64,000 nucleotides of DNA from Patescibacteria group bacterium (GCA_041660565.1 JBAZWC010000001.1:6155-70154), one strand, 5' to 3'. Positions 3,338-62,975 are shown, counted from the stretch's first letter. A program made the numbers and translations. The notes: generated from the letters alone by a model not told the origin.

Positions 3338-3565
3338 GTCATTTCGACTCCTCGAGCCTTGTCTCGAGGGTGGCTTCCTGCCCTCTTAGGGCGTAAGCCC
3401 GGAGGGAGAAATCTACAAAATTAGAATTTTTAATTTTTAATTTTTAATTTCAAATGAAAGGTAGCCAATTTTAAATGACTAAATAAGGAACTATTTAAAA
3501 TTTAAACATTTGGTTCTTATTCATTTAAAATTTAGCCTTTAAAATTAAAAATTATGTCGGGACGC
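3338..3565. repeat. MITE-like intergenic repeat, family 1, right end truncated
   Basis: Starts with the TIR TGTCATTTCGAC and has an AT-rich core (aatttttaattttta...aaatgaaaggtagccaatttt...) that recurs at 51084-51338 and, inverted, at 55147-55401. Confidence 0.6.
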
Positions 3566-3606
3566 GTCACGTTTAATTATTGCTGAAGTAACGAATTTGA
3601 TTAGGT

Positions 3607-4647
3607 ATGAGCACAAAAACATTGTTTGACAAATGGTGGCATTATCTAAAATATAGCCCAACTGATCCGCATTTTTATGCCGATTCGGCACCAAAAGTGG
3701 TGGCAATTGGTGGTGGAACCGGCCTGTCTAGTTTACTACGCGGGCTAAAACAAATTACGCCAAACATTACTGCTATTGTTGCCGTTACGGACAATGGGCA
3801 GAGTAGCGGACGATTGCGAAAACTTTATGACACGTTGCCACCGGGAGATATTCGTCAGTGCATCGCCGCGCTTTCACCGGATGAGGATGTTTTAACCAAA
3901 CTAATGAACTATCGTTTCAAAAAAGGTGACGGGTTAAAGGGGCATGCGCTTGGAAATCTGCTGATGGTAGCGTTGGCAGATCAATCCGGTGGTTTTGACC
4001 GTGCCATCATTAGACTGAGCGAAATTTTACGTATTACTGGACGGGTAATGCCGGTTTCTTTAGGAAATATCCAATTAAACGCCAAATTAAAATCCGGCCA
4101 AGTGGTGGTAGGCGAGGAGCAAATTAGTCTTGCCGGGCACGATGACCCAATAGATCGTGTCTTTCTGCCTCATTCAGTGCGTGTTTATCCGCCCGCGGTA
4201 CAGGCGATACTTGAGGCCGATCTAATTATTATTGGCCCGGGTAGTTTGTACACCAGCGTAATTCCGCCTTTGCTTTTTTCGGGCATCACTAAGGCGCTAA
4301 AAAGCTCGTTGGCGGTTAAAGCTTATGTTTGCAACATCTCGACCGAGCGTGGCGAAACCGAAGGATATTCGGTTCAGAATCATATCGAAAAAATTGTAGA
4401 GGTGGTTGGGAAGAATGTCGTTAATTTTGCGTTGGTGAACAAAAATCATGTTAGATCAAACCAGATCCCAGAAGGCGAATTGGGATCGATTAAAGTGATT
4501 TCTACCAGGCAATCGATAATTGAGGGCGTGCGGATCAAATTAGATTCAGTATCAAATTCAAAACAGCCGTTGTATCATGACAGTATTCGTTTGGCGGAAG
4601 TGTTGATTATGGAATATAATGAAATCAAGAAAAGGTTGAAACGATGA
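3607..4647 (+). CDS. yvcK: YvcK/CofD-like gluconeogenesis factor (UPF0052)
   Basis: VVAIGGGTGLSSLLRGLK...AIVAVTDNGQSSGRLR motif block. Confidence 0.75.
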   Translation: MSTKTLFDKWWHYLKYSPTDPHFYADSAPKVVAIGGGTGLSSLLRGLKQITPNITAIVAVTDNGQSSGRLRKLYDTLPPGDIRQCIAALSPDEDVLTKLMNYRFKKGDGLKGHALGNLLMVALADQSGGFDRAIIRLSEILRITGRVMPVSLGNIQLNAKLKSGQVVVGEEQISLAGHDDPIDRVFLPHSVRVYPPAVQAILEADLIIIGPGSLYTSVIPPLLFSGITKALKSSLAVKAYVCNISTERGETEGYSVQNHIEKIVEVVGKNVVNFALVNKNHVRSNQIPEGELGSIKVISTRQSIIEGVRIKLDSVSNSKQPLYHDSIRLAEVLIMEYNEIKKRLKR

Positions 4648-5366
4648 AACCGTTGGTTGTGGCAAATTGGAAGATGAATACCACTTTGGCTGATGCCAGT
4701 GTGTTGGCAACGCTGGTGCGCAATCAGTTGCACGACTTAAGTGGGGTAGATGTGGTGCTTTGCCCGCCGTACATTTGGTTGCAAGAAGTCGCGTCAATCT
4801 TAGAGGTTTCGGCCAGGCATATCTATTTAGGAGCGCAAAACTGCCATCCAGATAAGTTTGGAGCACTAACTGGCGAAGTCTCGGTGGCGCAAGTTAAAGA
4901 TCTGTGCCAGTTTGTGATTGTGGGACATTCCGAGCGCCGTGAGCATTTTCATGAAACAAACGAATTTGTCAGCGACAAAGTGCAGGCGGTACTGGAAAAC
5001 GGAATGACGCCAATTTTGTGCGTAGGCGAAAAAACCAAATCTGACCGTAGTATTGGGCTGGTAATAGATGAATTGCATCAGTCGCTGGCTGGAATCAAGC
5101 CAGCCGAATACGAGAAGTTAGTAATTGCGTACGAGCCAATTTGGGCAATTGGCACCGGCAACGCGTCCGAGGCGGTTTACTGCGAAATGGTCTGCGATGA
5201 AATTAAAAAGGTTGTGGGCAAAGAAACACGAGTGTTGTATGGTGGCAGCGTTACTGCCGAAAACGTTGACCGATTTACTAGTCTAACAGCAATCGACGGT
5301 GTATTAGTGGGTGGCGCCAGTTTAAAGGCATCAGAATTTGTTGAGCTGTGTAAAAAGGTTAGATAA
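4644..5366 (+). CDS. tpiA: triosephosphate isomerase
   Basis: VVANWKMN, IVGHSERR and CVGE motifs. The ATGA stop/start overlaps yvcK. Confidence 0.9.
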   Translation: MKPLVVANWKMNTTLADASVLATLVRNQLHDLSGVDVVLCPPYIWLQEVASILEVSARHIYLGAQNCHPDKFGALTGEVSVAQVKDLCQFVIVGHSERREHFHETNEFVSDKVQAVLENGMTPILCVGEKTKSDRSIGLVIDELHQSLAGIKPAEYEKLVIAYEPIWAIGTGNASEAVYCEMVCDEIKKVVGKETRVLYGGSVTAENVDRFTSLTAIDGVLVGGASLKASEFVELCKKVR

Positions 5367-8167: not shown

Positions 8168-8334
8168 TGTCATTCCGGACATGATCCGGAATCTATGCGA
8201 TAACAACAATTCCATCATTAAAAATTTCAAATTTCAAATTTCAAATTCTTGTTTGAGATTTCTCCCTCCGGGCTTACGCCCTAAGAGGGCAGGAAGCCAC
8301 CCTCGACTCGAATGTCGAGTAGTCGAAATGACAA
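8168..8334. repeat. composite intergenic palindromic repeat
   Basis: Starts with TGTCATTCCGGAcatgaTCCGGAAT and contains an (aatttcaaat)n microsatellite. Positions 8254-8305 are the reverse complement of 3350-3400. Ends with GTCGAAATGACA. Confidence 0.6.
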
Positions 8335-8954: not shown

Positions 8955-9051
8955 TCGAGCTGATTAGGGGAGGAAATGGATAATATCATTGCATCTTATC
9001 CTGTTTTGTGGTAAAACAATTATGGAAATCACATACCTCTGGGAGGTGCGC

Positions 9052-9396
9052 ATGGCTGATCACGGGTATCGCGCCACCGTTGGGTTGAAGGCGCGAACGA
9101 TGGCTGAAGCACAGAAGGTGGTCGCCCATCTGCGGGAAATGGACGGAATCGAGTTCGTTCTCGAGCCGTTCCAGATCCGCAGTGCCGCGGCGGCTGAGGA
9201 AGGCGCTGCTCAAGAGTCTCGGCCGCGAGTGCTAGCCCAGCAAGGTCTGGCAGCGGTTGCCGGCGGGGTGGCAAGCGGTGGCAATTGGTTTCGCGAGCAG
9301 TTGGACGAGGTCGCTCAGGAGGCTGAGGGGTGGCCACCGTGGCGCACAGCGGGCACTGATCGCTTCGCGCCGAGCAATGAGCCCGTGACGTTGTAG
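9052..9396 (+). CDS. hypothetical protein (high-GC cassette B, gene 1)
   Basis: ATG preceded by SD gggaggtg. GC is about 60-65%. No recognisable domain. Confidence 0.4.
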   Translation: MADHGYRATVGLKARTMAEAQKVVAHLREMDGIEFVLEPFQIRSAAAAEEGAAQESRPRVLAQQGLAAVAGGVASGGNWFREQLDEVAQEAEGWPPWRTAGTDRFAPSNEPVTL

Positions 9397-9431
9397 GTCG
9401 GTATGTCGTTTCTGGTGAGGGAAGGGAGGTG

Positions 9432-9803
9432 ATGAGCACAATGTCGTACAGTTTCGTTGTCGTGTGCGACGATGAAATCGATCAAGATCAGGCTTATGCC
9501 ATCACGCAAGAGGTTGATAGGATCCGAGGTGTTAGGTTCACCTACGCTCCCTATCGCAGTGGACCGGAGTCGGAGGCTCCGTCGCGACCGAAGACGTGGG
9601 GCGATGTCTTCCCGTCTGCACCGTTTTATCGAGCGGGATCGGCCGATCCGGTTGATATCCCGTTGGCAGATGGTGATGCGGACGACAAGCCGCCGCGGCC
9701 GGCGAAGGTGGGGGCTGCTCGGTTTGACTTCGCGGAGGTTGTGGAAGTCGAAGACCCTCCGCGGATGGAGAAGCAAGGGCATTACCCCGGCGAGGTCGGG
9801 TGA
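9432..9803 (+). CDS. hypothetical acidic protein (high-GC cassette B, gene 2)
   Basis: ATG preceded by SD gggagg. Acidic, Pro-rich sequence. No recognisable domain. Confidence 0.4.
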   Translation: MSTMSYSFVVVCDDEIDQDQAYAITQEVDRIRGVRFTYAPYRSGPESEAPSRPKTWGDVFPSAPFYRAGSADPVDIPLADGDADDKPPRPAKVGAARFDFAEVVEVEDPPRMEKQGHYPGEVG

Positions 9804-9816
9804 TACCGGGGTTATT

Positions 9817-9858
9817 GGGCGGGAGCTGCATTGCGCAGCCCTCGCCCGTTTTCTTTTC
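9817..9858 (+). terminator. rho-independent terminator closing cassette B
   Basis: GGGCGGGAGCTGCattGCGCAGCCCTCGCCCG hairpin followed by ttttcttttc. Confidence 0.55.
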
Positions 9859-9867
9859 TATCATCTG

Positions 9868-9896
9868 TTGACAAATGGTCGCGACTTTGATAAATT
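9868..9896 (+). promoter_or_regulatory. sigma70-like promoter upstream of the 16S rRNA
   Basis: TTGACA, a 17-nt spacer, then TAAATT. Confidence 0.5.
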
Positions 9897-10112
9897 GAAT
9901 AAGTCCTTTGAATAAAAGAGATTTTTGAAACGTTAGCAATACGATGACGTATTGCTGATTGTTGCGAACTTTAATAATTTGATTTTTATCGTTTTACATT
10001 TTATTTGTGGTCAATTGACCATCGCAGGCTGACGAAAGTTGGTCGGCGAAAGATTTCCGAATAAGTTTTTTAATTTTAGAGCTAACAAGCATCTAATTCG
10101 ATCCTTAGGGAT

Positions 10113-11577
<1,465 letters not shown>

Positions 11578-11753
11578 AGGAGTCTAGCCCCTTTTTGTCG
11601 CAAGATAAATTGGTAGGTTAGGTCGATCGCTCCGATGTCCTGCTTGCAGGAACCGGAGTGACACTCTCGGAAACTGGTCACCCTCCTACGCTCCTTGGAG
11701 CTTCGGAAGGGCAAGATTGGCCACAAATAAGATGTAAATAGTTCTATAAAACA

Positions 11754-11791
11754 AAAATCCCCGTTAATTTGGGGATTTTTTGTGTGATGTG
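11754..11791 (+). terminator. hairpin terminator downstream of the 16S
   Basis: aaaaaTCCCCgttaatttGGGGAtttttt. A similar hairpin occurs at 12206-12231. Confidence 0.4.
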
Positions 11792-11816
11792 ATATTCTTG
11801 AAGAAAAGGAGTCGAA

Positions 11817-12197
11817 GTGGTAGAAAATGGTGCACCTAGTCCGGATGGTCAACGTCGGCAGCCAACGAATGAGGAATATGGTCGAATGTACGCGGAGGAT
11901 GATGCTTATGAGAAAAAAATTCGCGAGCTTACCGAAATGTCAGTGAGTTTTCTAAATGAGCTTGATCAAAGGTATGAAGCCGAAGGTAATTTAACTGGAC
12001 TGATAGCAACCAAATATTGTGAAGAAGTGGCAGATTGGCTTGGGCAAAACCCTGAATGCTGTGAGCCGTTTTTAGAGGTGTATTTTGAGCGTAATAGACA
12101 TAAATATGACGAGAGTACCTTGGCATCGCAGTTGGTAAATGAGCACGGTGTGTTGCTAGCGGCGGTGGCTAGAAAAGCAAAACCAGTAACCAACTAG
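11817..12197 (+). CDS. hypothetical protein
   Basis: GTG start 5 nt after SD aaaggag; 126 aa; sits between the 16S and 23S. Confidence 0.45.
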   Translation: MVENGAPSPDGQRRQPTNEEYGRMYAEDDAYEKKIRELTEMSVSFLNELDQRYEAEGNLTGLIATKYCEEVADWLGQNPECCEPFLEVYFERNRHKYDESTLASQLVNEHGVLLAAVARKAKPVTN

Positions 12198-12246
12198 TTA
12201 ATCCAAAAATCCCCAAATCAAGGGGATTTTTGTGTAATTGATAATC

Positions 12247-12334
12247 TGGTGGGCGTACATGGATTTGAACCATGGACCTCGTCATTATATTTCGTGCTTC
12301 GCGCGAAATTATTTACAACTGAGAAATCGCCTAT
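12247..12334 (-). pseudogene. tRNA-Ile 3'-half remnant
   Basis: Repeats the T-arm and acceptor 3' half of the adjacent tRNA-Ile (gacgaggtccatggttcaaatccatgtacgcccacc) but has no 5' half. Confidence 0.5.
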
Positions 12335-12335
12335 C

Positions 12336-12412
12336 TGGTGGGCGTACATGGATTTGAACCATGGACCTCGTCATTATCAGTGACGCGCTCTAACCAACTG
12401 AGCTATACGCCC
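12336..12412 (-). tRNA. tRNA-Ile (anticodon GAT)
   Basis: The reverse complement GGGCGTATAGCTCAGTTGGTTAGAGCGCGTCACTGATAATGACGAGGTCCATGGTTCAAATCCATGTACGCCCACCA folds as a cloverleaf with GAU in the loop. Confidence 0.9.
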
Positions 12413-12415
12413 TTT

Positions 12416-12508
12416 ATGCCCACCAGATAACAGATTTTCAGTTGTAAATATCATTGTACGCGCTCTAACCAACTGCCTGCCCTTCCGTAGCCTTGGCGAA
12501 GGAGGGAG
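12416..12508 (-). pseudogene. degenerate tRNA-Ile 5'-half remnant with a short-repeat insertion
   Basis: gggcgtatagct / cagttggttagagcgcgt are split by the inserted short repeat ccctccttcgccaaggctacggaagggcagg. Confidence 0.45.
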
Positions 12509-12617
12509 CTATACGCCCGTGTTTGATGTTAATATCATAACAAATTCTGACGCTTTCAGCAAGACCGTGCAATATGATATGTTAAACGCGTAATAAGATA
12601 ATAAATATGGAGAGAAT

Positions 12618-12944
12618 ATGGATCATGCAAATGTAACCACTGCTTTGGAACTACCGGACAAGAAAATTGTCAAAAATTTGGGATTAGTACGCGGGGTAAC
12701 TGTTCGTTCTCGTTCAATGTTTGGCACCATTGGTGCTTCATTCCAAACTTTATTTGGTGGAAACATCTCTTTATTCACCGAGTTGTGTGAGAAAACGCGA
12801 CAAGAGGCGTATGATATTATGATCAAACACGCCGAAACTATGGGCGCAAACGCCATCATTGCAGTTAGATACGATGCCAACGAAGTGATGCAAGGCGCCA
12901 CCGAAGTATTGTGCTACGGCACCGCTGTTGTGGTGAAAGAATAA
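12618..12944 (+). CDS. YbjQ/UPF0145 family protein
   Basis: Typical UPF0145 length and motif pattern (GANAIIAVRYD...). Confidence 0.7.
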   Translation: MDHANVTTALELPDKKIVKNLGLVRGVTVRSRSMFGTIGASFQTLFGGNISLFTELCEKTRQEAYDIMIKHAETMGANAIIAVRYDANEVMQGATEVLCYGTAVVVKE

Positions 12945-12947
12945 TCT

Positions 12948-13289
12948 ATGAACACGTACCAAATGAGGCTGGCGAAGAGTCAGTTTGATATGATACGAAA
13001 CGGACAAAAGATTATCGAGTCTAGAATATGCGACGAAAAGAGACAGCGTCTTAATATCGGGGATGACGTGCTGTTTATATCCAGAAACGATCCTAAGCAA
13101 ACAGTCCTGACAAAAATCAAAGCACTTTTTCGCTACGCTACTTTTGATGATTTATTTACGGATTTCCCCCCTGAGTTGTTCGGAAATCATTCAAAATCCG
13201 CGCTGATTCAAGATGTCAGAGAGTTCTACTCTGTTGATGAAGAAAAGAAGTATGGCGTTGTTGGAATTAAAATTGAGTTAGTAAAATAA
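12948..13289 (+). CDS. ASCH domain protein
   Basis: A small ASCH-like beta-barrel pattern (RLNIGDDVLF). Confidence 0.55.
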   Translation: MNTYQMRLAKSQFDMIRNGQKIIESRICDEKRQRLNIGDDVLFISRNDPKQTVLTKIKALFRYATFDDLFTDFPPELFGNHSKSALIQDVREFYSVDEEKKYGVVGIKIELVK

Positions 13290-13290
13290 A

Positions 13291-13752
13291 ATGCTATCAA
13301 CCCCACATATATTAACCGGATCGGCTATTGGCAAAATAGCGGCGCCTTTAGGCTTGCCGGCAGTTTTTGCGCTCGGATTCATTAGTCATTTTGTATTAGA
13401 TTTAATTCCGCACACCGATGCAGCGCTACTAGAAAGTTCAACCGAAGATCATACCTCGACCCACGACCTATTAGTGGTGATTGCCGAGGTCGTGGTTGGC
13501 ACAGGGCTGTTTTTGTATTTTTGGTATATCAGCCACTGGAATCTGAGTTTATTAGTTGGCGCATTTGGGGCAACACTACCGGATTTATTTGACAACGCGC
13601 CGTGGTGGAAAAAATGGTTTCGCACTTCCAAACTTGGCTCAATTTTTCACTATCTGCATGAGCTGGTTGATGGCGGGCTAGAGAAAAATAAATTACTTGG
13701 CATCGCTACGCAATTTTTGGTTATTGCCGTGGCCATTATTGTTTTGACCTAA
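13291..13752 (+). CDS. hypothetical membrane protein
   Basis: Several hydrophobic helices; no known domain. Confidence 0.5.
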   Translation: MLSTPHILTGSAIGKIAAPLGLPAVFALGFISHFVLDLIPHTDAALLESSTEDHTSTHDLLVVIAEVVVGTGLFLYFWYISHWNLSLLVGAFGATLPDLFDNAPWWKKWFRTSKLGSIFHYLHELVDGGLEKNKLLGIATQFLVIAVAIIVLT

Positions 13753-13771
13753 ATCGTGCTAAATTAGAACT

Positions 13772-13996
13772 ATGTGGATGATTATCTTACGTCGATTATT
13801 TGTTGGCCCAATTGCTATTCTGCTTGGGTATTTGTTGATCAAATATACCGACCGACTTTTGATGTCTGTTGGTAATCCAGAATGGATGGATAATTTTCCC
13901 GGCGGGGCACAGGCTGTTTGGAAAATCGCCGGTATTATACTAATAATGCTCGGAATCGTCGTCTTGTTAGGCGGATTCTCGAGCATGGGTTTGTGA
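13772..13996 (+). CDS. small hypothetical membrane protein
   Basis: 74 aa with two hydrophobic segments. Confidence 0.4.
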   Translation: MWMIILRRLFVGPIAILLGYLLIKYTDRLLMSVGNPEWMDNFPGGAQAVWKIAGIILIMLGIVVLLGGFSSMGL

Positions 13997-13997
13997 T

Positions 13998-14072
13998 TGG
14001 TGGACCTGAGAGGATTTGGACCTCCGACCTCTTCCTTGCAAAGGAATTGCTCTACCACTGAGCTACAGGCCC
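13998..14072 (-). tRNA. tRNA-Ala (anticodon TGC)
   Basis: The reverse complement GGGCCTGTAGCTCAGTGGTAGAGCAATTCCTTTGCAAGGAAGAGGTCGGAGGTCCAAATCCTCTCAGGTCCACCA has a G3:U70 pair and UGC in the loop. Confidence 0.85.
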
Positions 14073-14139
14073 TTAACTTTTCGACTGTCTGTCAAAACTT
14101 ATTTTAACATAAAATTTAACTAATTACTACGTCAATCGC

Positions 14140-14454
14140 TTAGAATTTATTCCATTTTGGGTTTTGGAGATAGAATAGGTCTTCTTTGACAATGAATTTG
14201 ACTCCTTCCTTCTCGAGGAGGATTTTTTGTTGCGTGGGAGTGACGCTTGGGTTAACAATCGAAATATATCCTTTAGCATTAATCACCCGCCACCAAGGGA
14301 TTTCAACTTCTGCGGGTAATCGTCTGAGTGCCCAGCCGACAACGCGAGCGCCGTTTTGTAGTCCCGCTGCTTTTGCTACATCACCGTAACTAGCCACAAT
14401 ACCGGAGGGTATTTTGGCGACGATTGAATATATTTTGGTATAAAGTTCAGACAT
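14140..14454 (-). CDS. alkyltransferase-like protein (MGMT DNA-binding domain, catalytic Cys replaced)
   Basis: YGDVA...ARVVGWAL...PWWRV in place of the PCHRV active site. The true start is ATG at 14452-14454. The upstream extension to 14712 in the six-frame ORF track is spurious because it runs over repeat and high-GC DNA. Confidence 0.7.
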   Translation of the reverse strand: MSELYTKIYSIVAKIPSGIVASYGDVAKAAGLQNGARVVGWALRRLPAEVEIPWWRVINAKGYISIVNPSVTPTQQKILLEKEGVKFIVKEDLFYLQNPKWNKF

Positions 14455-14460
14455 TATAAT

Positions 14461-14560
14461 CCTTGTAGGGGTGGGTCTCGACCCGCCCACGGGCGGACAT
14501 CCTCCTTCGCCAAGGCTACGGAACGACAAGTATGAGTCCGCCCCTACATTGCTCGGAGAA
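14461..14560. repeat. nested short palindromic repeats
   Basis: GTAGGGG...GGGCGGAC[cctccttcgccaaggctacgg...]GAGTCCGCCCCTAC. The same outer palindrome, without the insert, occurs at 58600-58640. Confidence 0.5.
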
Positions 14561-14612
14561 TATGATAGTGAAAAAGGAAGGCCCGCCTGCGAACGTCGCA
14601 GGCGGGGTCGAG

Positions 14613-14840
14613 CTACTGTGGGATCTCCTCTAGGGGAGAGGGGGTTCCTGCATGGAAGCAATCGGGCTGGTCGGCGTGATAGTGTCCGGTGAAACCAAGC
14701 GCGGAGCCCCATGCGAACTGAACGATTGGGGAGAAGTATCTGCCCCTTGGTTGTCTCGGGCTGTCATCTACCCGATCTAGTTGTGGAGGGGGCGATCCCT
14801 CCGGAATTGTGAGGACTAACTCCTGCCCATCAGGCATCAT
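14613..14840 (-). CDS. hypothetical small protein (high-GC cassette C), doubtful
   Basis: 75-aa ORF with SD ggagg upstream. High GC makes a spurious ORF quite possible. Confidence 0.25.
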   Translation of the reverse strand: MMPDGQELVLTIPEGSPPPQLDRVDDSPRQPRGRYFSPIVQFAWGSALGFTGHYHADQPDCFHAGTPSPLEEIPQ

Positions 14841-14964
14841 AAGTTCCTCCGAAAATGGCTTAGCATCTTGGCCTTAATTTAATCATATTCTTATGTGTCC
14901 AGGCGGCGCAACTTGTACAAATCCAGCGGCCTGTGTCATAATTAAGAGTGAGAAATGAGGGGAA

Positions 14965-15717
14965 ATGCCACAAGCACAAAATTTACATCGTCGTACAACA
15001 CATCCAAAAGCAGACGATAATGTTTCGCCAAAAGTCAATCGGAAAAATAGCAAAAAAGCCGAAGCTGAAAAAGTGGATTTACATGTTTTGCCTGTGGAAA
15101 AACATGAATCTTTTCACGAGTTTTATCCGTTAAACGTAACCAAAGTTGAGACTGAAAAAACCGGTGGGTACATTGGTTTGATTATTGGGTTGGTAATTCT
15201 GGCGCTGGTGGGTGGGCTGACGTTTTGGTACGTAAAAGAGCAGAACAATGCCACCAGTTCATCATCAACGCCAGCAAGCTCGGATCAAACCGGCGCCTCG
15301 ACGAAATATCAAAACTCTACGTATGGATTTAATCTAACCCTTCCTAGTACATGGAAAACGGTTAAATACTCGGACGGCACGGTTTGCACTGCTACAAATT
15401 GTCCGGTGGCAGATATAATTTTTGTGATGCCTGTTGGGGGCGCATCGGACAGCATTGCGCTGTTAGCTCTTGACGTGTATTCAATCGCAAATTACACTGC
15501 CTTGGTTAGTGCCGCAACAATAAGTGGTGGGGTCGCGCCTGTGTTGGTAGGGCAGACTGACCAGTACGCGGTGGTAGTAAATTCGCAAGCAACTCGTGAA
15601 TCTGGTACGACCGAGTTGGTTGGGATGGCGATTGATGCAATTCCAACGGTATTAAACTCATTTATAGCCACAACGCCGGTTGTAACCCCAACTCCGACCG
15701 CGACAGCCACACCTTAA
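14965..15717 (+). CDS. hypothetical membrane-anchored secreted protein
   Basis: One TM segment after about 65 aa, a Thr/Ser-rich region, and a TPTPTATATP tail. Confidence 0.5.
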   Translation: MPQAQNLHRRTTHPKADDNVSPKVNRKNSKKAEAEKVDLHVLPVEKHESFHEFYPLNVTKVETEKTGGYIGLIIGLVILALVGGLTFWYVKEQNNATSSSSTPASSDQTGASTKYQNSTYGFNLTLPSTWKTVKYSDGTVCTATNCPVADIIFVMPVGGASDSIALLALDVYSIANYTALVSAATISGGVAPVLVGQTDQYAVVVNSQATRESGTTELVGMAIDAIPTVLNSFIATTPVVTPTPTATATP

Positions 15718-15803
15718 TCATGAAATAAAATAGATTTGACAAGCCCGCCTCTACACTGGTCGTGGCGTTTATTCTCCATTTGTGCTAAAATAATGTTAGA
15801 AAT

Positions 15804-15879
15804 GGGCCTGTAGCTCATCTGGTAGAGCGCAGCATTCGCATTGCTGAGGTAAGGAGTTCGAGTCTCCTCAGGTCCACCA
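15804..15879 (+). tRNA. tRNA-Ala (anticodon CGC)
   Basis: GGGCCTGTAGCTCATCTGGTAGAGCGCAGCATTCGCATTGCTGAGG...TTCGAGTCTCCTCAGGTCCACCA with G3:U70, encoded CCA, and loop TTCGCAT. Confidence 0.85.
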
Positions 15880-15902
15880 AATCAGAGGATGGGAGATGGA
15901 AT

Positions 15903-16232
15903 ATGGATGATGGAAACAGTGATTTTTATTGCGATTTTGTTTTAAATGACAAGATTAAGGTCAATATTATCAAAGAGACAGACATGGTACTGGCCTTCTT
16001 TCACACTAAACCATCTTGGGCTTTTCATGTAGTGATTGTGCCAAAAACTCATATATCAAATATTACTGAGCTAAAAGATCTGGCGATAATTGAAGAAATT
16101 TTTAAAATCGCACAAGAAATTATTAATAACAATAATCTCAAGGCTATAAATTATCGCATAATCACCAATGGTGGTGGTTTTCAGGACTCAAAACATTTGC
16201 ATTTTCATTTAGTGTCTGGGGATAAGTTGTGA
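15903..16232 (+). CDS. HIT family hydrolase
   Basis: Histidine triad HLHFHLV near the C-terminus. Confidence 0.75.
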   Translation: MDDGNSDFYCDFVLNDKIKVNIIKETDMVLAFFHTKPSWAFHVVIVPKTHISNITELKDLAIIEEIFKIAQEIINNNNLKAINYRIITNGGGFQDSKHLHFHLVSGDKL

Positions 16233-16302
16233 AAAAGCTATTGCATTGTTTTTTAAACCATATAGAATTAATATATAAGTAATAAATATTTAGGAGGGGT
16301 TT

Positions 16303-16554
16303 ATGGATGGAAAAGAACCATCTAGCCATTTGGGGCATGTGGCGTTCGTGATATTAGCGTTTGTTTTGGGCGGAATAGTCGGATATATGGTTGGCGCAGC
16401 ATACAATAGTATGTATACCAACGAAGATTCGTCATTCTTGTCATCTTGGGTTAAAAAGACCAATTCAACCGCATCACCAAGTGCGACAACATCTGCGTCG
16501 CCAAGTGCTACGGCAACCACAACTGCGTCACCTTCGGCTACTGCTACTCCGTAG
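16303..16554 (+). CDS. small membrane protein with an Ala/Ser/Thr-rich low-complexity tail
   Basis: One TM helix followed by ASPSATTSASPSATATTTASPSATATP. Confidence 0.4.
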   Translation: MDGKEPSSHLGHVAFVILAFVLGGIVGYMVGAAYNSMYTNEDSSFLSSWVKKTNSTASPSATTSASPSATATTTASPSATATP

Positions 16555-16565
16555 TTGTAAAATCG

Positions 16566-16595
16566 TTGACATTTCATATCAGTTTGTGATAAGAT
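16566..16595 (+). promoter_or_regulatory. candidate promoter in front of the long 23S leader
   Basis: TTGACA, an 18-nt spacer, then TAAGAT. About 700 nt of non-coding AT-rich leader lies before the 23S. Confidence 0.35.
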
Positions 16596-17808
16596 GATTT
16601 AAAGTTGTTTGATGTACAAATAACCGTGAGGTTAAAACGTTTTACTTAAACAATCAGTTTAATTTCGGGATGGAATTAAAGATGTGAGCAATATTGTTTT
16701 GCTTGTGTTTTTGAACGCTTCCCGATGGGAAGTTTTTTGTTTCACTAGCCAGTGATGAGTCTCGGTCTTGAAACCGGGTCCACAAATTGCACGGGGACTG
16801 ATGTCCTGGCGAGTAAGTTCTTTTACAACTGAAAGGTGCATTAACGTGTTAAGTAATTTCACGGTTAATGCATTAAATTATGTATAACTTCCTTATTGAT
16901 TATACATAATATGATTCTTCCGATAATACTTAAGCCGCAAGGCTGTAGCAATTCGAAACCCCGCGAGGTTTTGTTTGCGCGAGCAAATGAAAATGAGCAA
17001 CGAGGTGAGAGCCGAGTTGATCCAAAACCGACACGAGGTTTCCATAAAAAATAAAATTGTTAGGATGAAACTTACCAAAGCCTGGTAAGGATCAGTCATA
17101 ACGTGTCAAGTAACCAATAATGAAAACAGATGACTAGAAGCACTTGTGTTTCAAATCTGATGTTTAGTTAAAGGTTTTGTTAGATCCGTTAATTAGAAGC
17201 AGAGACTCGAGACTGTAGAGGATTTTTCCTCTTAGGTTTCTTGTTTCTGGTCTCTAGTTAGCAGTCATGTAAAAAGTGACGAAAGCGCATGTGGAGGATG
17301 CCTTGACTGAAGATGCTGATGAAGGACGCACGAGGCGGCGATATGCTCCGGGAAGGTGCCAACGAACCAATGATCCGGAGATTTCCGAATGGGGTAACCC
17401 ATCCCGTTTTACGGGATACTCTCCTTTGAATATATAGAAGGAGTAGGAGGCAGCTCGGGAACTGAAACATCTTAGTACCGAGACGAAAAAAAAGTAATTA
17501 ACGATTCCGTGAGTAGTGGCGAGCGAAAGCGGATCAGCCTAAACCATCCGGAGGACTTAGAGCAGAATTATTTCTGTTTTATGTCTTCTGGATGGGGTTG
17601 CAGGGTGCGAACAGACCGTAAGGTCGAGTAGTTTGAAAAAATCAATTTATAGCAGAAGGTGCCTGGAAAGGCCCACCATAGAGGGTGATAGTCCCGTTAT
17701 GCGAAATATTTTGGTCTACTTGGTTTGCAAACCTAAGTACCACAGGGCACGAGAAACCCGGTGGGAATCTGGGACGGTCACGTCCTAAGGCTAAATACAT
17801 CTTCAGAT

Positions 17809-17848
<40 letters not shown>

Positions 17849-19207
17849 GCCGCATAGGCGAGTGAAATAGTACCTGAAACCACAATGCGTACAAGATGTC
17901 GGAGGGCTATGCCCCGTAAGGGGAATGCCTGACGGCGTGCCTTTTGTAGAATGAGCCAACGAGTTAGCTGTGTATGGCGAGGTTAAACTTTAAATTAGTG
18001 AAGCCGTAGTGAAAGCGAGGCCTAAATGGCCGACTAGTCGTACACACTAGACCCGAAACCAGGTGATCTATCCATGGTCAGGGTGAAGCCCCAGTAAAAA
18101 GGGGTGGAGGCCCGCACTCGGCAACGTTGTAAAGTTGCGGGATGAACTGTGGATAGCGCAAATATTGCAATCGAACCTGGAAATAGCTGGTTCTCCTCGA
18201 AATATATATAGGTATAGCCTACATTTAAAATACACAGAGGTAGAGCACTGGTAGGGCTACTCCGCCGTGAGGTGGGGAAACCCTGATAAACTCCGAATTC
18301 TGATGTATGTTCATGTAGAGTCAGACGGTGGGGGCTAAGCTTCATCGTCGAGAGGGAAACAACCCAGACCATTAGCTAAGGTCCCAAATTAATCGCTAAG
18401 TGGGGAAGGCAGTGATCGTCCCAAAACAACCAGGAAGTTGGCTCAGAAGCAGCCATCTTTTAAAGAGTGCGTAATAGCTCACTGGTCTAGTTAAGGATGG
18501 TTGCACCGAAAATGTAACGGGGCTCAAGCGATTAACCGAAGCTATGGACTTCAACGCAAGTTGGAGTGGTAGAGGAGCGTTCGTAACTGCTGTGAAGCCA
18601 TACCGTAAGGAGTGGTGGAGTGTTACGAAGTGAGAATGTTGGCATGAGTAACGAATTAGGCAGGCGAGAAACCTGCCCACCGCAAGAGCAAGGTTTCCTG
18701 GGCCACGATAATCGTCCCAGGGTTAGGCGGTCCTAAGTCGAGGCGCAAAGGCGTAGACGATGGACAGCTGGTTGATATTCCAGCCCTTGTTAAATTTTGA
18801 TTGGCGTGACGCCTCATAGGGGCTTAAATGATCGCATGGTTGAAAGTTTAAGTGAGTACGAGGACAAGAAAAGCGTCCAATCGCTAAGGTTTAACAATCC
18901 GTACCGCAAACCGACGCAGGTGCTCGAGTCGAGTAGACTCAGGTGATCGGAAGAACCCTCGTTAAGGAACTCGGCAAAATAGCGTCCGTAAGTTCGCAAT
19001 AAGGACTGTCCCGCGAAACTCGCAAGAGTGTAGAGGGATTACAACAAAAGAGATCAAGCGACTGTTTAGCAAAAACTTAGCTCCCTGCCAAAGCGAAAGC
19101 TGATGTATAGGGGGTGATGCCTGCCCAATGCCCGAAGGTCAAGAGGAGATTTAAGATTATATCAGGAATCGAATTTAAGCCCGGGTGAATGGCGGCCGTA
19201 ACTATAA

Positions 19208-19913: not shown

Positions 19914-19944
19914 GGTCCTATGGTAGCGAAATTCCTTGTCGGGT

Positions 19945-21103: not shown

Positions 21104-21143
<40 letters not shown>

Positions 21144-21168
21144 GCATCCAAGAGATCACTTCGACGAT

Positions 21169-21206
<38 letters not shown>

Positions 21207-21242
21207 AGGTGAAGTCGCTTCCAAGGGTTTGGCTGTTCGCCA

Positions 21243-21294
<52 letters not shown>

Positions 21295-21643: not shown

Positions 21644-21763
21644 TTCTGGTGCCTTTTGCCCCTAGGAAACACCCGTTCCCATCCCGAACACGGTCGTTCA
21701 GCTAGGGAGTCGCCAATGATACTTGCCTCGCAAGGGGCCGGGAAAGTAGGTCGGTGCCAGAAC
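21644..21763 (+). rRNA. rrf: 5S ribosomal RNA
   Basis: TTCTGGTGCC...CCCATCCCGAACACGG...GTAGGTCGGTGCCAGAA with complementary ends. Confidence 0.85.
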
Positions 21764-45564: not shown

Positions 45565-45695
45565 CAGAACAAGCACGAAGCACGAATTTCGAAATTCGAA
45601 AAATTATTAATCCAAAAATTGAATATTCGATTTTGAGATTTATTTCGTATTTCGAGTTTCGTATTTCGAATTTTTATTGATTGTCGGAGAATTAA

Positions 45696-46820: not shown

Positions 46821-46950
46821 CATGTCATTCCCGTGAAGACGGGAATCCAGTCTATAAAAGAATTTTCTATCTCTGCTCCGAATCAAGTTCGGGGTGGTTG
46901 GCGCCAGATCCCCAAATAGTCCGCCAGCTGGCAGAGTCGGGGATGACAAA

Positions 46951-48357: not shown

Positions 48358-49109
48358 TGGAATCTTTCCGCTTGACGTTGCTTCCATTCATCTACCAAAT
48401 GTACCTGACGCCCGGCGTCTGAACGGCAACGGTCACGCAACTGATCGCGACTGTCTACCCAGCGCTCACCGTTCCAAAACTCTAACTGATCAAAGTTAGT
48501 TTTATACAAACCTTTATCGCCATAGGCGGTGCCTAAATAATGATATTTTTTGCCATCATCTTTAGCGTATTTAATACAATCGGTCATTAGCCACAACCCA
48601 AGTGAATTGGAAAAATGTTCAAGGTTGTAAAAGGAATAAATATAATGACTCATCTGGTCATCTTGAATCAAAAAACAGTAGCCAAAAACTTCATTATCTT
48701 TTTTGTATTCAATAATGTCGGTAATTACGCCCATATCCAAAATCTGTCTAAACCGACTTTCAGGCATTACTCTTTCGCCAAATCGTTCGCCAAAATAATG
48801 CAGGCAAAAATGGACAAATTTGGGGTCGTGGGTGTCAAATTTAGTAATGGGGATAAGAGTTGATTTTAGATCGTTAAATTTGGCATAGATGCGACGGTTT
48901 TCGCTGTTCATCTGCCAATCATCTAGTTTGATTCGCACGCTACGAGACATATAGTACATATTATTAATGCCTTTGGTGCCGGTGTAGGGTAGGAAGCCGA
49001 GGTTGTAGATATCTGCTAGTTTGTCACCATCTTCGCGTACGGCGTAAGTGGTGTAGCCAAAAGTGTAGGTGCCGTAATCTTGCATTAGTTCGGAATTAAA
49101 TATTTTCAT
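48354..49109 (-). CDS. aminoacyl-tRNA-dependent transferase-like protein (ATE_C / FemABX-like GNAT fold)
   Basis: C-terminal YHYLGTAYGDKGLYKTNFDQLEFWNGERW resembles the Ate1/Bpt C-domain. The true start is ATG at 49107-49109; the longer track ORF runs into repeat DNA. Confidence 0.45.
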   Translation of the reverse strand: MKIFNSELMQDYGTYTFGYTTYAVREDGDKLADIYNLGFLPYTGTKGINNMYYMSRSVRIKLDDWQMNSENRRIYAKFNDLKSTLIPITKFDTHDPKFVHFCLHYFGERFGERVMPESRFRQILDMGVITDIIEYKKDNEVFGYCFLIQDDQMSHYIYSFYNLEHFSNSLGLWLMTDCIKYAKDDGKKYHYLGTAYGDKGLYKTNFDQLEFWNGERWVDSRDQLRDRCRSDAGRQVHLVDEWKQRQAERFQ

Positions 49110-49139
49110 ACGTAAATTATAACATAATATATGGAAATG

Positions 49140-49310
49140 TTCTTTCTTGTTCGAACGCAGCGAGAACTCTGTTGGGGGTGCATGACAGTTCTCGTCGCAG
49201 TGCTCCTCGAACAAGAACAGACTGGATTCTGGACCAGTCTCGACGAGGTTGAGCAGAGGTGGATCAAGCCCAGAATGGCAAAGAATAAGCCCGGGGACGT
49301 CGTGTGACAT
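49140..49310. repeat. palindromic repeat, family 4 (TTCTTGTTCGAAcg...cGAACAAGAA) plus a family 2-like tail
   Basis: TTCTTGTTCGAACGCAGCGAGAACTC...AGTTCTCGTCG...CTCGAACAAGAA. Homologs occur at 58420-58500 and in part at 57395-57430 and 58565-58600. Confidence 0.55.
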
Positions 49311-49844: not shown

Positions 49845-50092
49845 CTCCGTGAACCTCCTGTTGAGGGGAACTTGCGGCACGGTGCCACAATGACCATATT
49901 TTACACCATTTTTAGAACTTTGTCCAGTGGTTTGCCACTCTATCCTCCTCACCCGGCCTACGGCCACCCTCTCCTCTAGGAGGAGAGGGAAACCTCGAAA
50001 CCCTTCTCCTCGTTTTGAGGAGAAGGTGCCTGAAAGGCGGATGAGGAGCTACAAATTCTGACTTTTGTTGTTGAAAAGTGTATAATGGCAAT

Positions 50093-51083: not shown

Positions 51084-51338
51084 TGTCATTTCGACTCCTC
51101 GAGCATTGTCTCGAGGGTGGAGAAATCTCAAAGAAAGAAAATTTTTAATTTTTAATTTTTAATTTCAAATGAAAGGTAGCCAATTTTTAAATGACTAAAT
51201 AAGGAACCTTTTAAAAATTTAAACATTCGGCACTTATTCATTTAAAATTTAGCCTTTAAAATTTAAAATTTGGATAGGATTTTTTCTTAGATTTCTCCAA
51301 CATAGTCGAGCTGACGCTCTTCTAGGGTCGAAATGACA
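51084..51338. repeat. MITE-like repeat, family 1, full-length copy (about 255 bp)
   Basis: Left TIR TGTCATTTCGACTCCTCGAG...CTCGAGGGTGGAGAAATCT and right ...AGATTTCTCC...GGGTCGAAATGACA, with an AT-rich core shared with 3420-3550. Confidence 0.65.
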
Positions 51339-55146: not shown

Positions 55147-55401
55147 TGTCATTTCGACTCGGGGAGAGCGTCGGCTCGACCACGCTTCAAGAAATCTAAG
55201 AAAGAATCTCATCCATAATTATAAATTTTAAAGGCTAAATTTTTAATGAATAAGTACCGAATGATTAAATTTTAAATGGTTCCTTATTTAGTCATTTAAA
55301 ATTGGCTTCCTTTCATTTGAAATTGAAAATTGAAAATTTAAAATTCTCATATTGTAGATTTGCACACGCCCCAATTGGAACATCGAGGAGTCGAGATGAC
55401 A
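55147..55401. repeat. MITE-like repeat, family 1, full-length copy in the opposite orientation to 51084-51338
   Basis: TGTCATTTCGAC...GTCGAGATGACAA, with a core that is the reverse complement of 51140-51270. Confidence 0.65.
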
Positions 55402-57357: not shown

Positions 57358-57507
57358 ACTGGATTCCCGCCTTCGCGGGAATGACAACTCGAAGATAGTT
57401 CTCGGTTATGCCTCGAACAAGAAAACCGTAGTCCAAGCTTTCGTGACCTCCGTAGCTCGGAGAGCGAAGGGGGTAGTTTGTTTTCCTCATAACACACTAA
57501 AGCGTGG
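57357..57507. repeat. composite repeat (family 2 unit, family 4 tail and family 3 unit); left flank of cassette G
   Basis: ctggattcccgccttcgcgggaatgacaac...agttctcggt...cgaacaagaaaaccg. Then ccgtagtccaagctttcgtgacctccgtagctcggagagcgaaggggg, which is homologous to 41130-41225. Confidence 0.55.
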
Positions 57508-57523
57508 TCTACGAACGCCAAAC

Positions 57524-58419: not shown

Positions 58420-58640
58420 GAGGTGCAAGATTGATTTTCTTGTTCGAACGGAGTGAGAACTCAATCAGATTGGGTAGTTCTCGTCGTAACCCTCCTCGAA
58501 CAAGAATATTGGAAGTCTTCTATATACTGGATTCCGGATCTAGTCCGGAATGACAACAAAAACGGGTAGTTCTCAGTCGCGACTTCGAACAAGAAAACCG
58601 GTGGGCGGACATATGAGTCCGCCCCTACGGTGGTCGTGAT
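58420..58640. repeat. composite repeat (family 4 palindrome, family 2 unit, family 4 tail and a GGGCGGAC palindrome); right flank of cassette G
   Basis: TTCTTGTTCGAACGGAGTGAGAACTC...CTCGAACAAGAA; ctggattccggatctagtccggaatgacaac...agttctcagtcgcgacttcgaacaagaaaaccg; ggtgggcggacatatgagtccgcccctacgg. Confidence 0.55.
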
Positions 58641-61529: not shown

Positions 61530-61638
61530 TTAGTCTTACTTACTTGAGAATACTCCAATTTTAATATATTGTCCAAATAGGGGGAAAACTACAATTTGAA
61601 ATTTGAAATTTGAAATTTTTAATGCAAGGATGATTTTT

Positions 61639-62835
61639 ATGCAGAAGCAAATTGAGGAATTGGTAACTCGCAACGTTACTCAAATTATCACCAAAGATGA
61701 ATTAATTAAGGCAACTGCCTCTGGCAAAAAGCTGAAGGTCTATTTGGGAGTTGATCCGTCTAGTCCAGACATCCATTTAGGCCATGCGGTAGTGCTGTGG
61801 AAACTGCGCCAGTTTCAAGATTTAGGCCATCACATTATTTTGCTGATTGGAGATTTTACTGCCCAAATTGGTGATCCAACCGGCAAATCTAAAGAACGCC
61901 CGGTACTGACCCACGAGCAAGTACTAAAAAATGCTACTGACTACAAAAAACAAGCCAGCAAAATCATCAACTTTAGCGGGAAAAATCCGGCGTCATTAGT
62001 TTTCAACAGCAAATGGCTCAGCAAACTAACGTTCAGCGACATCATTAAATTAGCCGGGAATTTTACGGTGCAACAGATGCTTGAGCGAGATATGTTTCAA
62101 GAGCGTTTGAAAAATAATCAACCTATTGGTTTGCACGAGTTCTTATATCCATTAATGGTGGGCTACGATTGTATTCAACTTGAAGCAGACGTAGAAGTAG
62201 GTGGGAACGATCAGTTATTCAACATTACCGCGGGGCGAACTTTACGCCAAAAGGTAAGTGGAAAATCTAAAGTGGTCTTAACTTGCGATTTGCTAACGGG
62301 GTCTGACGGATCGAAAATGAGCAAATCTGCCGGAAACATCATCCCGCTTAACGCGTCTGCTGACGAAATGTTTGGTTCGCTAATGGCGGTGAATGATAAA
62401 CTAATTGAACATTACGCCAAGTTATGTGGAGATTTTTCGTCCGATGAACTTTCAGAAATTGCGCATCGCTTGAAATCCAATGAAAACCCTCGTGATATCA
62501 AGTTAGATGTGGCTCAAAACATCGTCGCAAGATATTATCCTAAAGAATCGAGCGTTGTACGTGAGAAATTCTTATCACGATTTAGTGATGGTAATGCGGG
62601 TGAAGCAACATTAATTGAGCTGGACGTAAAAAATTTACCCTTAATGCAGCTAGTGGCGAAGGTTGCTAATGTATCAAATAGCGAAGCGCGCCGACTGATT
62701 GTGGGTAATGCGGTTGAGGTTGAGGGCAAGGTGCAATTTGACTTAAATAAACAAATTGATTTGGTGAATCCGGTGCAAATGCGCATCGGCAAGCATCGAT
62801 TTGTTAAAGTTAAATATCAACAACAAAATTTGTAA
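61639..62835 (+). CDS. tyrS: tyrosine--tRNA ligase
   Basis: HIGH-type HLGH and KMSKS motifs, with a C-terminal S4 domain. Confidence 0.85.
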   Translation: MQKQIEELVTRNVTQIITKDELIKATASGKKLKVYLGVDPSSPDIHLGHAVVLWKLRQFQDLGHHIILLIGDFTAQIGDPTGKSKERPVLTHEQVLKNATDYKKQASKIINFSGKNPASLVFNSKWLSKLTFSDIIKLAGNFTVQQMLERDMFQERLKNNQPIGLHEFLYPLMVGYDCIQLEADVEVGGNDQLFNITAGRTLRQKVSGKSKVVLTCDLLTGSDGSKMSKSAGNIIPLNASADEMFGSLMAVNDKLIEHYAKLCGDFSSDELSEIAHRLKSNENPRDIKLDVAQNIVARYYPKESSVVREKFLSRFSDGNAGEATLIELDVKNLPLMQLVAKVANVSNSEARRLIVGNAVEVEGKVQFDLNKQIDLVNPVQMRIGKHRFVKVKYQQQNL

Positions 62836-62850
62836 AACCCAACGCCCCCT

Positions 62851-62975
62851 TGTCATTTCGACTCGGGGAGAGTGTCAACTCGACCACGGTGGAGAAATCT
62901 TGAGAAAGAATCCATTCCAGTTGTTCTTAGAGATTTCTCCAACCGTTCGTGGAAGCTCACGGGGTCGAAATGACT
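62851..62975. repeat. MITE-like repeat, family 1, short copy
   Basis: TGTCATTTCGACTCGGGGAG...GGAGAAATCT...AGATTTCTCC...GGGTCGAAATGAC. The right TIR contains the argS ATG. Confidence 0.6.

Follow-up and report, generated by a model that had tools for sequence, protein, structure and literature searches.

The question raised by this stretch of DNA, 64,000 nucleotides from a Patescibacteria group bacterium (GCA_041660565.1 JBAZWC010000001.1:6155-70154) which we call the window, is what kind of element the palindromic repeats in its intergenic gaps represent. An earlier note had sorted these repeats into at least four families, F1 to F4, and had described them as resembling small transposable elements of the miniature inverted-repeat kind (MITEs), with terminal inverted repeats (TIRs). 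We consider it probable that they are instead tagged hairpins of the repetitive extragenic palindromic (REP) type, multiplied in this lineage, with the tag TGTC in F1, F2 and F4 and the tag GTAG in F3 and a set of further hairpins. Much of the original description holds: every coordinate listed for F1 to F4 contains a copy, the repeats are palindromic, non-coding and non-autonomous, and the families are interrelated, the element at 8168-8333 being a hybrid of an F2 and an F1 unit. Their abundance is far above chance; TGTCATTTCGAC is matched 13 times in the 64-kb window with no more than one mismatch, where 0.32 matches are expected, and TGTCATYCCGGA 11 times, where 0.46 are expected.

F1, F2 and F4 are all built on one unit, in which a tag TGTC is followed by a stem opening with AT, a variable inner part, the AT that closes the stem, and C(C/T)A as the tail. 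The tag reads TGTC in 24 of the 25 units in the window and AGTC in the remaining one (62975). The F2 units are 27-31 nt long with 8-bp stems, which differ from one another by compensated changes (ATTCCGGA/TCCGGAAT, ATTCCGGG/CCCGGAAT, ATTCCGGC/GCCGGAAT, ATCCCCGA/TCGGGGAT and ATTCCCGT/ACGGGAAT), and in eight of the ten short F2 units the loop is 4-5 nt (GAAG, CATGA, CTAGA, CTTGA, CTCGA, TTTAA). In the F1 units, and in the units at 34560 and 38751, extra hairpins of 20-60 nt replace this loop; in F1 the stem is ATTTC/GAAAT at its base, and a G.A/A.G step separates it from the one or more extra hairpins. The F4 half-unit, GTTC-GA-ACGGAGT-GA-GAAC, has an inner CGAACGGAGTGAG that is common to TGTC units of other contigs, and a covariance model of the TGTC unit matches it in part.

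The pairing of the unit can be followed in the sequences themselves. For 22 units of the window the closing sequence is their own complement and then ATC. In the window and 87 loci taken together, tag closure, defined as the complement of the next three bases and then ATC within 95 nt, is seen for 275 of 947 [CT]GTCAT tags compared with 28.5 for swapped triplets; about 100 of the closures are TTC closures chosen by the search pattern itself, and 101 use other triplets. Alignment of 36 distinct 28-nt units shows AT...AT (columns 5, 6, 24 and 25) to be invariant in all 36, as is the C that follows the stem (column 26), the tails being CCA, CTA or CTC/CTT. At positions that were not used for selection, the pair 12-18 is AU in 14 units, GC in 12 and CG in 8, and the pair 13-17 is CG in 20 and UA in 5. 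The pairs 10-20 and 11-19 are G.A/A.G in 28 of the 36 and Watson-Crick in the other 8. Pairing is specific to the register: it holds for 79% of cells, and sliding the partner by 1-3 columns lowers this to 13-47%. For whole dimers the folding z-scores are -2.3 to -5.6.

The arrangement of the units is equally regular. All nine dimers in the window, among them the hybrid at 8168-8333, are head to head, that is, two units with their tags outside enclose an AT-rich spacer; no tail-to-tail and no head-to-tail dimers are present. The GC content of the units is 0.39-0.64 and that of seven of the nine dimer spacers 0.19-0.26. Spacer families recur at 3417-3556, 51130-51287 and, inverted, 55199-55349, and have heptamer tandem repeats inside. 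The left ends of the elements lie at a median of 8.5 nt past the upstream stop codons and all of the window elements are non-coding. AT-rich heptamer arrays (AATTTTT, AAATTTC, AAGCACG, AATTTCT, TATTTCG and AATTTGA, in 2.3-4.7 copies) are found at 3425-3450, 8222-8247, 31274-31290, 33268-33299, 41064-41093, 43107-43131, 44261-44289, 45571-45673, 51140-51165, 55320-55345 and 61593-61618. Some of them are the spacers of REP dimers, several start directly past a stop codon, and similar runs are found past stop codons in two related loci, L089 and L002.

This anatomy corresponds closely to that of the published CGTC REPs (Di Nocera, De Gregorio and Rocco 2013; PMC3733652). In that class the tag CGTC is in many repeats 'changed to TGTC' (a CCTC variant also exists), the stems are of 8-9 bp and nearly always open with complementary A-T, T-A, the loops are of 4-5 nt, longer in some species, and the tail is CCA. 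CGTC REPs are mainly head-to-head dimers with the tags outside, heterodimers being allowed; they have no dedicated transposase and are intergenic, mostly between unidirectional or convergent open reading frames (ORFs) and near ORF 3' ends (PMC3733652). The window repeats share the 4-nt unpaired tag in its TGTC variant, the AT-opening stem of 8-9 bp, the CCA/CTA tail, the head-to-head dimers including heterodimers, and the intergenic location near ORF 3' ends; in-frame copies inside genes are occasional, one being found in the relative L089, and no transposase is adjacent. The loop is of 4-5 nt in most of the short units but not in the others. F2 thus agrees with the class in the features tested, as to the loop in most of its short units, whilst F1 agrees in tag, AT opening, tail, head-to-head arrangement and location but not in the short loop. 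The window also differs in its spacers of up to 150 nt with heptamer repeats, in the GTAG mini-hairpins nested in its units, in the elaborate F1 structure of basal ATTTC stem, tandem G.A step and extra hairpins, and in its host, a member of the Patescibacteria or candidate phyla radiation (CPR); the published hosts belong to five phyla and are mostly Alphaproteobacteria (PMC3733652). CGTC-1 is the dRS3 repeat of Neisseria, and CGTC-1 and CGTC-4 are RPE-6 and RPE-4 of Rickettsia (PMC3733652). With RPE-4 and RPE-6 the window repeats have in common the class of tagged hairpin, a reduced genome and, in L089, an in-frame insertion in glycyl-tRNA synthetase (GlyRS), the difference being that the copies of the window are all intergenic and none is in frame.

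The second tag, GTAG, is carried by F3 and by four further hairpins (14465, 14491-14548, 38899-38925 and 58601-58631) with compensated stems: GTAG-GGGTGGGT...ACCCGCCC at 14465, GTAG-GGGCGGAC...GTCCGCCC at 58628 and 14548, and GTAG-GGGTGATT...AATCACCC at 38925. In their tag, covarying stems, doublets and lack of target duplications F3 and these hairpins resemble the GTAG REPs, REPINs and BIMEs. They differ from the REPIN-RAYT system in that no Y1_Tnp/RAYT gene is present in the window, and in related CPR genomes it is AGGGT-N3-ACCCT palindromes, absent from the window, that lie on either side of the Y1_Tnp genes.

Small hairpins of this kind are also nested inside the TGTC units. Compared with the units at 51084 and 43191, those at 3337 and 8333 (8255-8333) share an additional GC-rich hairpin of 33 nt, identical in both and placed between GG and AGAAATCT, and the unit at 40610 contains a 27-nt hairpin after GACT(CC). 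In the unit at 33398 the position GG|AGAAATCT is again occupied, here by a hairpin of 31 nt that the units at 51338, 43038, 55147 and 62851 do not have. The earlier proposal that the elements nest, in particular at 14461-14560 as against 58600-58640, is borne out: the GTAG REP at 14491-14548 is the hairpin of 58601-58631 with its loop split, between GGGCGGACAT and ATGAGTCCGCCC, by 31 nt of F3 core. These nested insertions, of 27-33 nt, are clean and without duplication, and CGTAG or CGTAA is found in every inserted piece, CGTAG being present also in the F3 arms and core. Two independent insertions at one host position suggest that the nesting is target-specific.

Self-BLAST of the window gives 26 repeated segments of 3.1 kb in total, and the curated list comprises 48 pieces and 2,623 bases, or 4.1% of the window, none within genes. 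The elements are set out in Table 1. F3 has two full-length copies (41130-41225 and 57426-57513) and core hairpins at 11682, 12481, 21572 and 32442, and F4 is present at 49143-49217 and 58436-58506 with half copies at 57397 and 58564. The statement that nearly every gap longer than 80 bp contains repeats was too strong, because only 20 of the 36 gaps of at least 80 bp hold a piece; beyond 28 kb the figure is 16 of 23.

The density of repeats is peculiar to the lineage of the window. The comparison of orthologous sites that had been proposed was made with five syntenic relatives (L089, L093, L094, L095 and L091), whose MraY is 72-76% identical to that of the window. There the genes are separated by short junctions or overlap, and units are nearly absent. 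The recO-alr junction is 189 nt in the window and 35, -4 and 38 nt in relatives (negative values denoting overlap), ftsL-ftsI is 202 nt against 127, 27, 55, 108 and 20, ftsI-mraY is 230 nt against 141, 53, 51, 42 and 60, and ftsW-murG is 131 nt against -8 and 7. With its filters off, the covariance model built on the 28-nt unit recovers 10 full units from the window (5 of them training sequences), and one unit plus one weak match from 76.8 kb of six related loci. The few units in the relatives' loci therefore indicate lineage-specific expansion and not conserved terminators. The clear match in a relative is inside the GlyRS gene of L089 (3609-4988), where a REP dimer at ~4592-4661 is in frame and adds ~24 residues (…DSGQAGMTE…) in a variable linker, which window GlyRS does not have; its unit at 4661 is a canonical CGTC-tagged copy. 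Just past ftsI, L002 (60% FtsI identity) has an F3-like core and a unit whose stem, ATTGC/GCAAT, is compensated. Judging from these sequences, the repeat class is old in the lineage and its density in the window lineage-specific. The FtsI-like protein has its best species-representative match, at 60% identity, in a metagenome-assembled genome (MAG) labelled Candidatus Saccharibacteria, followed by other CPR lineages.

Units of the same kind occur well beyond these relatives. The F1 pattern TGTCATTTCGAC-N15-45-GGAGAAATCT is present in 7 IMG/VR contigs, of which at least two are phage structural modules with many 70-nt head-to-head dimers between genes, and in at least 120 metagenome stretches; the 80 loci that were profiled span GC contents of 0.30-0.65. 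In the 120 metagenome loci among the matches listed there are 342 units, with adjacent pairs head to head 78 times, tail to tail 24 times and head to tail 21 times. Tandem arrays of a 10-nt flank plus TGTCATTTCGACCA, with 3-4 repeats, are seen in the IMG/VR contigs L085 and L088 (for example L088 4096-4168), which carry phage structural genes and many of the 70-nt dimers.

We propose that the repeats are selfish hairpin elements, non-autonomous, whose numbers would have grown in this lineage. A sequence-specific enzyme acting in trans probably inserted the copies in the form of single-stranded hairpins, with no target duplication. A candidate would be an HUH/Y1-like enzyme or a site-specific recombinase, neither of which is encoded in the window. 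That the TGTC repeats are still mobile today, moved by an enzyme new to the CGTC superfamily, for which no transposase has been known since 2013, is doubtful in our estimation. Three observations would speak for it, pointing to a mechanism that is site-specific and free of duplications, and active in phages too: precise nested insertions share one position (GG|AGAAATCT) in two F1 sub-types, the basal motif TGTCATTTCGA...GGAGAAATCT is conserved across phyla, and the expansion is lineage-specific in a genome of ~1 Mb. If it were true, so small a gene set would be unusually tractable for finding the enzyme by elimination. As the repeats are co-transcribed inside operons such as dcw, their hairpins, in RNA or DNA, probably have a secondary influence on the stability of mRNA and do not serve for intrinsic termination.

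Several points weigh against the interpretation as lineage-multiplied REPs. The covariation of the stems would fit a selected RNA structure equally well. Since no mobilising enzyme was found, mobility is inferred from the distribution of the repeats, their nesting and the comparison with relatives as distant as 72-76% in MraY. The copies are only ~75-93% identical to one another in the repeat grouping of the window, so that recent transposition is not demonstrated. No empty site is seen at base resolution, because intergenic DNA is not alignable between genomes whose MraY proteins are that far apart, and L001, the one contig that is closer, does not differ from the window. A loop longer than the published 4-5 nt is present in the F1 units and in both F2 units with long loops. 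Finally, the comparison with the CGTC class is by published description and not by consensus sequences, so the repeats are not assignable to one of the sub-families CGTC-1 to CGTC-4.

[quoted passage not shown] According to the Neisseria FAM18 genome paper, which describes this model, dRS3 is ATTCCCNNNNNNNNGGGAAT, a 20-bp inverted repeat with the consensus ATTCCC-N8-GGGAAT; in NIMEs it flanks RS families of ~50-150 bp, the GC content peaks at dRS3 and falls at the RS, and a phage-encoded transposase or recombinase integrates into dRS3. The units of the window at 46823 (ATTCCCGTGAAGACGGGAAT) and 57386 (ATTCCCGCGAAGGCGGGAAT) fit the consensus literally and the others fit it by compensated changes; GC-rich inverted hairpins around AT-rich spacer families give a similar GC 'wave', with mosaic junctions. 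Recombination would account for the hybrid dimers, for the spacer families shared by loci in either orientation, for the mosaics at 57360-57513 and 58436-58631 and for the tandem arrays of flank and TGTCATTTCGACCA in phage contigs. However, the window has no recombinase gene and no long arrays, only single dimers and the two short mosaics, and the precise, small nested insertions resemble insertion events. Unlike NIMEs, the repeats are not accompanied by surface-protein genes or a known integrating phage, and the organism is unrelated; in 2007 the FAM18 paper stated that NIME arrays were not seen outside Neisseria. We regard this explanation as unlikely.

A second alternative is that the hairpins are terminators, attenuators or structures for the stabilisation or processing of mRNA, kept by the host for their function and not spread. 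This would explain why the elements begin so close to stop codons and fold well with covarying stems, and REPs of the CGTC class are thought to be transcribed. Against the earlier suggestion of a terminator or attenuator role, however, none of the units is followed by a T-tract: the hairpins run on into CTATATAAAA or CTAAGAAA, and since a 3' T-tract is missing they are not terminator-like; none is among the terminator-like sites of the window. Totals of such sites are not clearly above those of shuffled sequences (30 against 22.5, SD 4.2, and 20 against 15.9, SD 3.5), and sigma-70 promoter-like counts equal those of shuffles, with a few outward ATGACA matches resembling a -35 element (for example at 33393-33421). 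The orthologous junctions of the relatives, at several of which the genes overlap, are without such elements, and the same conserved sequence occurs across GC contents of 0.30-0.65 and in phages. Metagenome singletons beside the 3' end of a gene are oriented with the gene in 24 cases and against it in 23, which speaks against an RNA role that depends on orientation. Rfam gives no match to the repeats at gathering thresholds in the whole window, nor in a permissive search (E<=1) of 28000-64000. We hold selection for function as the origin of the repeats to be quite unlikely, although some copies may have been exapted secondarily for a host function.

No mobilising enzyme could be linked to the units. 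No transposase or recombinase domain is found in the scanned ORFs of the window. Transposases are likewise not enriched near units elsewhere: the 138 flanking ORFs of phage and metagenome contigs belong to ordinary metabolism or to phages, any one Pfam family is common to two of them at most, and there is no transposase among the 25 families listed. In L089 a 200-residue Y1_Tnp protein (Pfam 38.7 bits, cut-off 23) is encoded between a hypothetical gene and murB, where the window has only a 110-nt gap. This IS200-like gene was rejected as the mobiliser, being flanked by its own AGGGT-N3-ACCCT palindromes and not by TGTC repeats. Homologues in three other CPR genomes are likewise flanked by palindromes of their own, with a longer inverted repeat in L216; these palindromes are absent from the window and from the remainder of the fetched loci, and none of the best 120 homologues is on the source contig. 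The family, of ~205 residues, is itself common in CPR genomes, with thousands of database matches; the copies examined have a REPtron-like layout (L089 19343-20147; L217 1922-2704; L218 1936-2645; L216 1885-2738).

The idea that the repeats are classical MITEs, deletion derivatives of DDE-type insertion sequences with true TIRs TGTCATTTCGAC/GTCGAAATGACA and TG...CA ends, cut and pasted by a parent transposase encoded elsewhere, is the least likely of all: lengths of 77-255 nt, inverted ends, AT-rich cores, intergenic position in both orientations and the TG start and CA finish typical of several DDE families would suit it, but each 'TIR' is a self-contained hairpin with a covarying stem that also stands alone in 7-8 cases, hybrid dimers join units from different families (in phage contigs too), the anatomy is that of the CGTC/TGTC and GTAG REP superfamilies, no transposase family is present in the window or prominent among the neighbouring ORFs elsewhere, and the check for target-site duplications that the earlier note had proposed gave none at any of the nine dimers, the longest abutting direct repeat being 0-1 nt. 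Identity with QMITE1 and QMITE2 of Coxiella, at first suggested by the GC content and the intron-bearing 23S, was also rejected; these too are palindromic, MITE-like and from a reduced genome, and one of them contains a GTAG REP, but the direct repeats of 7-11 nt of QMITE2 are absent in the window, and the closest proteins of the window are from Patescibacteria MAGs. Literature searches with the repeat sequences as strings returned unrelated primers, together with the Neisseria paper containing the dRS3 string.

The interpretation as tagged REPs extends this class to the CPR; what is new is the host, together with the elaborate form of F1 and the precision of the nesting. The abundance had been called unusual for a reduced genome. 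This holds in so far as no report of REP-type repeats in the CPR was found in the searchable literature, but reduced genomes as such offer precedents, the same repeat class being known from Rickettsia and Wolbachia. With REP DNA making up ~4% of 64 kb in a genome of ~1 Mb, and relatives that have near none at the same junctions, the organism provides a compact system for questions of mobilisation and of roles in operons.

Table 1 Repeat elements and related hairpins in the window, with their constituent units
Feature	Position	Strand	Remarks
F1-type TGTC unit with 33-nt nested GC-rich hairpin insertion	3337-3416	+	AT-rich spacer 3417-3556 after it; right-hand unit missing (truncated dimer)
Hybrid head-to-head dimer	8168-8333	.	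F2 unit 8168-8195 (+), spacer with (AAATTTC)3.7, F1 unit 8255-8333 (-)
F3-core hairpin CCTTCCGAAGC...GCGTAGGAGG	11682-11710	-	Downstream of 16S rRNA
F3-core hairpin CCTTCCGTAGCCTTGGCGAAGGAGG	12481-12505	+	
Two GTAG-tagged REPs	14465-14548	.	14465-14490 (+); 14491-14548 (-), loop split by 31-nt F3-core insertion
F3-core hairpin	21572-21597	-	Between 23S and 5S rRNA
F2 head-to-head dimer, 77 nt	29285-29361	.	Units 29285-29312 (+) and 29334-29361 (-)
F3-core hairpin and single F2 unit	32442-32527	.	Hairpin 32442-32466 (+), unit 32500-32527 (-); upstream of recO
(AATTTCA)4.6 spacer and F1 unit with 31-nt nested insertion	33262-33398	-	Unit 33317-33398; left-hand unit missing
Single F2 unit, loop with ~50 nt of extra hairpins	34560-34636	+	Begins 5 nt past the alr stop codon
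Degenerate F3-like segment TTTCGTAGACCACGCTTTAGCGTAGGAGG...	36530-36575	+	
F2 head-to-head dimer and GTAG REP	38751-38925	.	Long-loop unit 38751-38826 (+), unit 38865-38892 (-), REP 38899-38925 (-)
Single F1 unit with 27-nt nested insertion	40610-40682	+	Between rsmH and ftsL
(AAGCACG)4.3 and AT-rich spacer, then full-length F3	41064-41225	+	F3 41130-41225; GTAG-bearing arms around F3-core hairpin
F1 head-to-head dimer	43038-43191	.	Between ftsI and mraY
F2 head-to-head dimer	44322-44403	.	Between mraY and ftsW; right tag is the ATGACA of the over-long ftsW ORF call
F2 head-to-head dimer	46823-46948	.	Between convergent murG and murC; left unit ATTCCCGTGAAGACGGGAAT a literal dRS3 fit
F4 palindromic dimer and decayed F2 unit	49143-49281	.	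Dimer 49143-49217, F2 unit 49222-49281
F1 head-to-head dimer, 255 nt	51084-51338	.	AT-rich spacer is long (GC 0.19) and related to those at 3417-3556 and 55199-55349 (one family)
F1 head-to-head dimer, 255 nt	55147-55401	.	Spacer is the 51130-51287 spacer inverted; right unit partly decayed
Mosaic	57360-57513	.	F2 unit 57360-57386 (-, fits dRS3), F4 half 57397-57424, full-length F3 57426-57513
Mosaic	58436-58631	.	F4 dimer 58436-58506, F2 unit 58528-58555 (-), F4 half 58564-58597, uninterrupted GTAG REP 58601-58631 (-)
F1 head-to-head dimer	62851-62975	.	Upstream of argS; right tag AGTC, its complement giving the ATG at 62970

A further small palindrome family, CTCCTCTAGGRGAGAGGG, which is absent from the earlier list, occurs at 14622-14645 and 49968-49990.

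The repeats had also been thought to provide start codons. ORF calls do begin in the tags, but the start of ftsW does not lie there: its call starts at the ATGACA of the 44403 unit, and three homologues start at the residue aligned with M19 (44452), 18 codons downstream. For argS the start may be the ATG at 62970, inside the tag of 62975, or a GTG at residue 10, where Arg_tRNA_synt_N begins and which is preceded by AAGAAGG. The TTG-initiated ftsL call starts within the F1 unit at 40610-40682. The MGMT-like ORF (14140-14712), in whose spurious N-terminal extension both GTAG REPs of 14465-14548 fall, and the ATE-like ORF (48354-49310) are also lengthened by repeats. In annotation, such repeats thus create false N-terminal extensions (ftsW, the MGMT-like and ATE-like ORFs) and spurious small ORFs, as at 57344 and 58317.

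The gene content of the window is of the usual housekeeping kind (uvrC, tpiA, pgk, tig, clpP, fpg, recO, alr, glyS, the dcw cluster, murB and argS). At 43236-48387 the genes run mraY-ftsW-murG and then, on the minus strand, murC; murD is missing between mraY and ftsW, whereas L089 and L093 have mraY...murD-ftsW-murG-murC on one strand; REP dimers of the window lie at each rearranged junction. The rRNA genes (10114-21762) are unlinked, 16S ending at 11574 and 23S starting at 17271, with YbjQ-like, ASCH, MGMT-like and HIT genes and, on the opposite strand, tRNA-Ile and tRNA-Ala between them. Two ORFs for LAGLIDADG endonucleases (19301-19828 and 20029-20583) lie inside the 23S gene, whose 4,295 nt compare with 2,925 nt in the model. 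Both the unlinked 16S and 23S and the long intron-bearing 23S fit known CPR genomes. Between clpP and 16S is a region of ~1.1 kb (8955-10113), GC ~0.50, with ORFs overlapping on both strands; it gave no Pfam match in three tested ORFs and no Rfam match at the gathering threshold.

In a 58-nt direct repeat of 90% identity (12231-12288 and 12320-12377), tRNA-Ile (12336-12412, minus strand) provides one copy with its 3' part, and the other is a partial duplicate adjacent to it; this could be an old integration scar. At 31574-31647 is a tRNA-like gene (36.5 bits with the Rfam tRNA model) to which ARAGORN gives no amino-acid assignment (anticodon field 'ag'). Two segments of 90 nt (35692-35781 and 36577-36666; 82% identity) lie upstream of and extend into the start of the ORFs 35705-36481 and 36663-37328, neither of which has a Pfam match; the two may be paralogues with a common leader. 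Upstream of mraZ (39044-39071), and outside the repeat families, is an array of (AAAAGTGGGG) x2.8 with a 10-nt period, which we take to resemble an MraZ operator and which is kept in L002 (3060-3105) and L089 (5817-5860).

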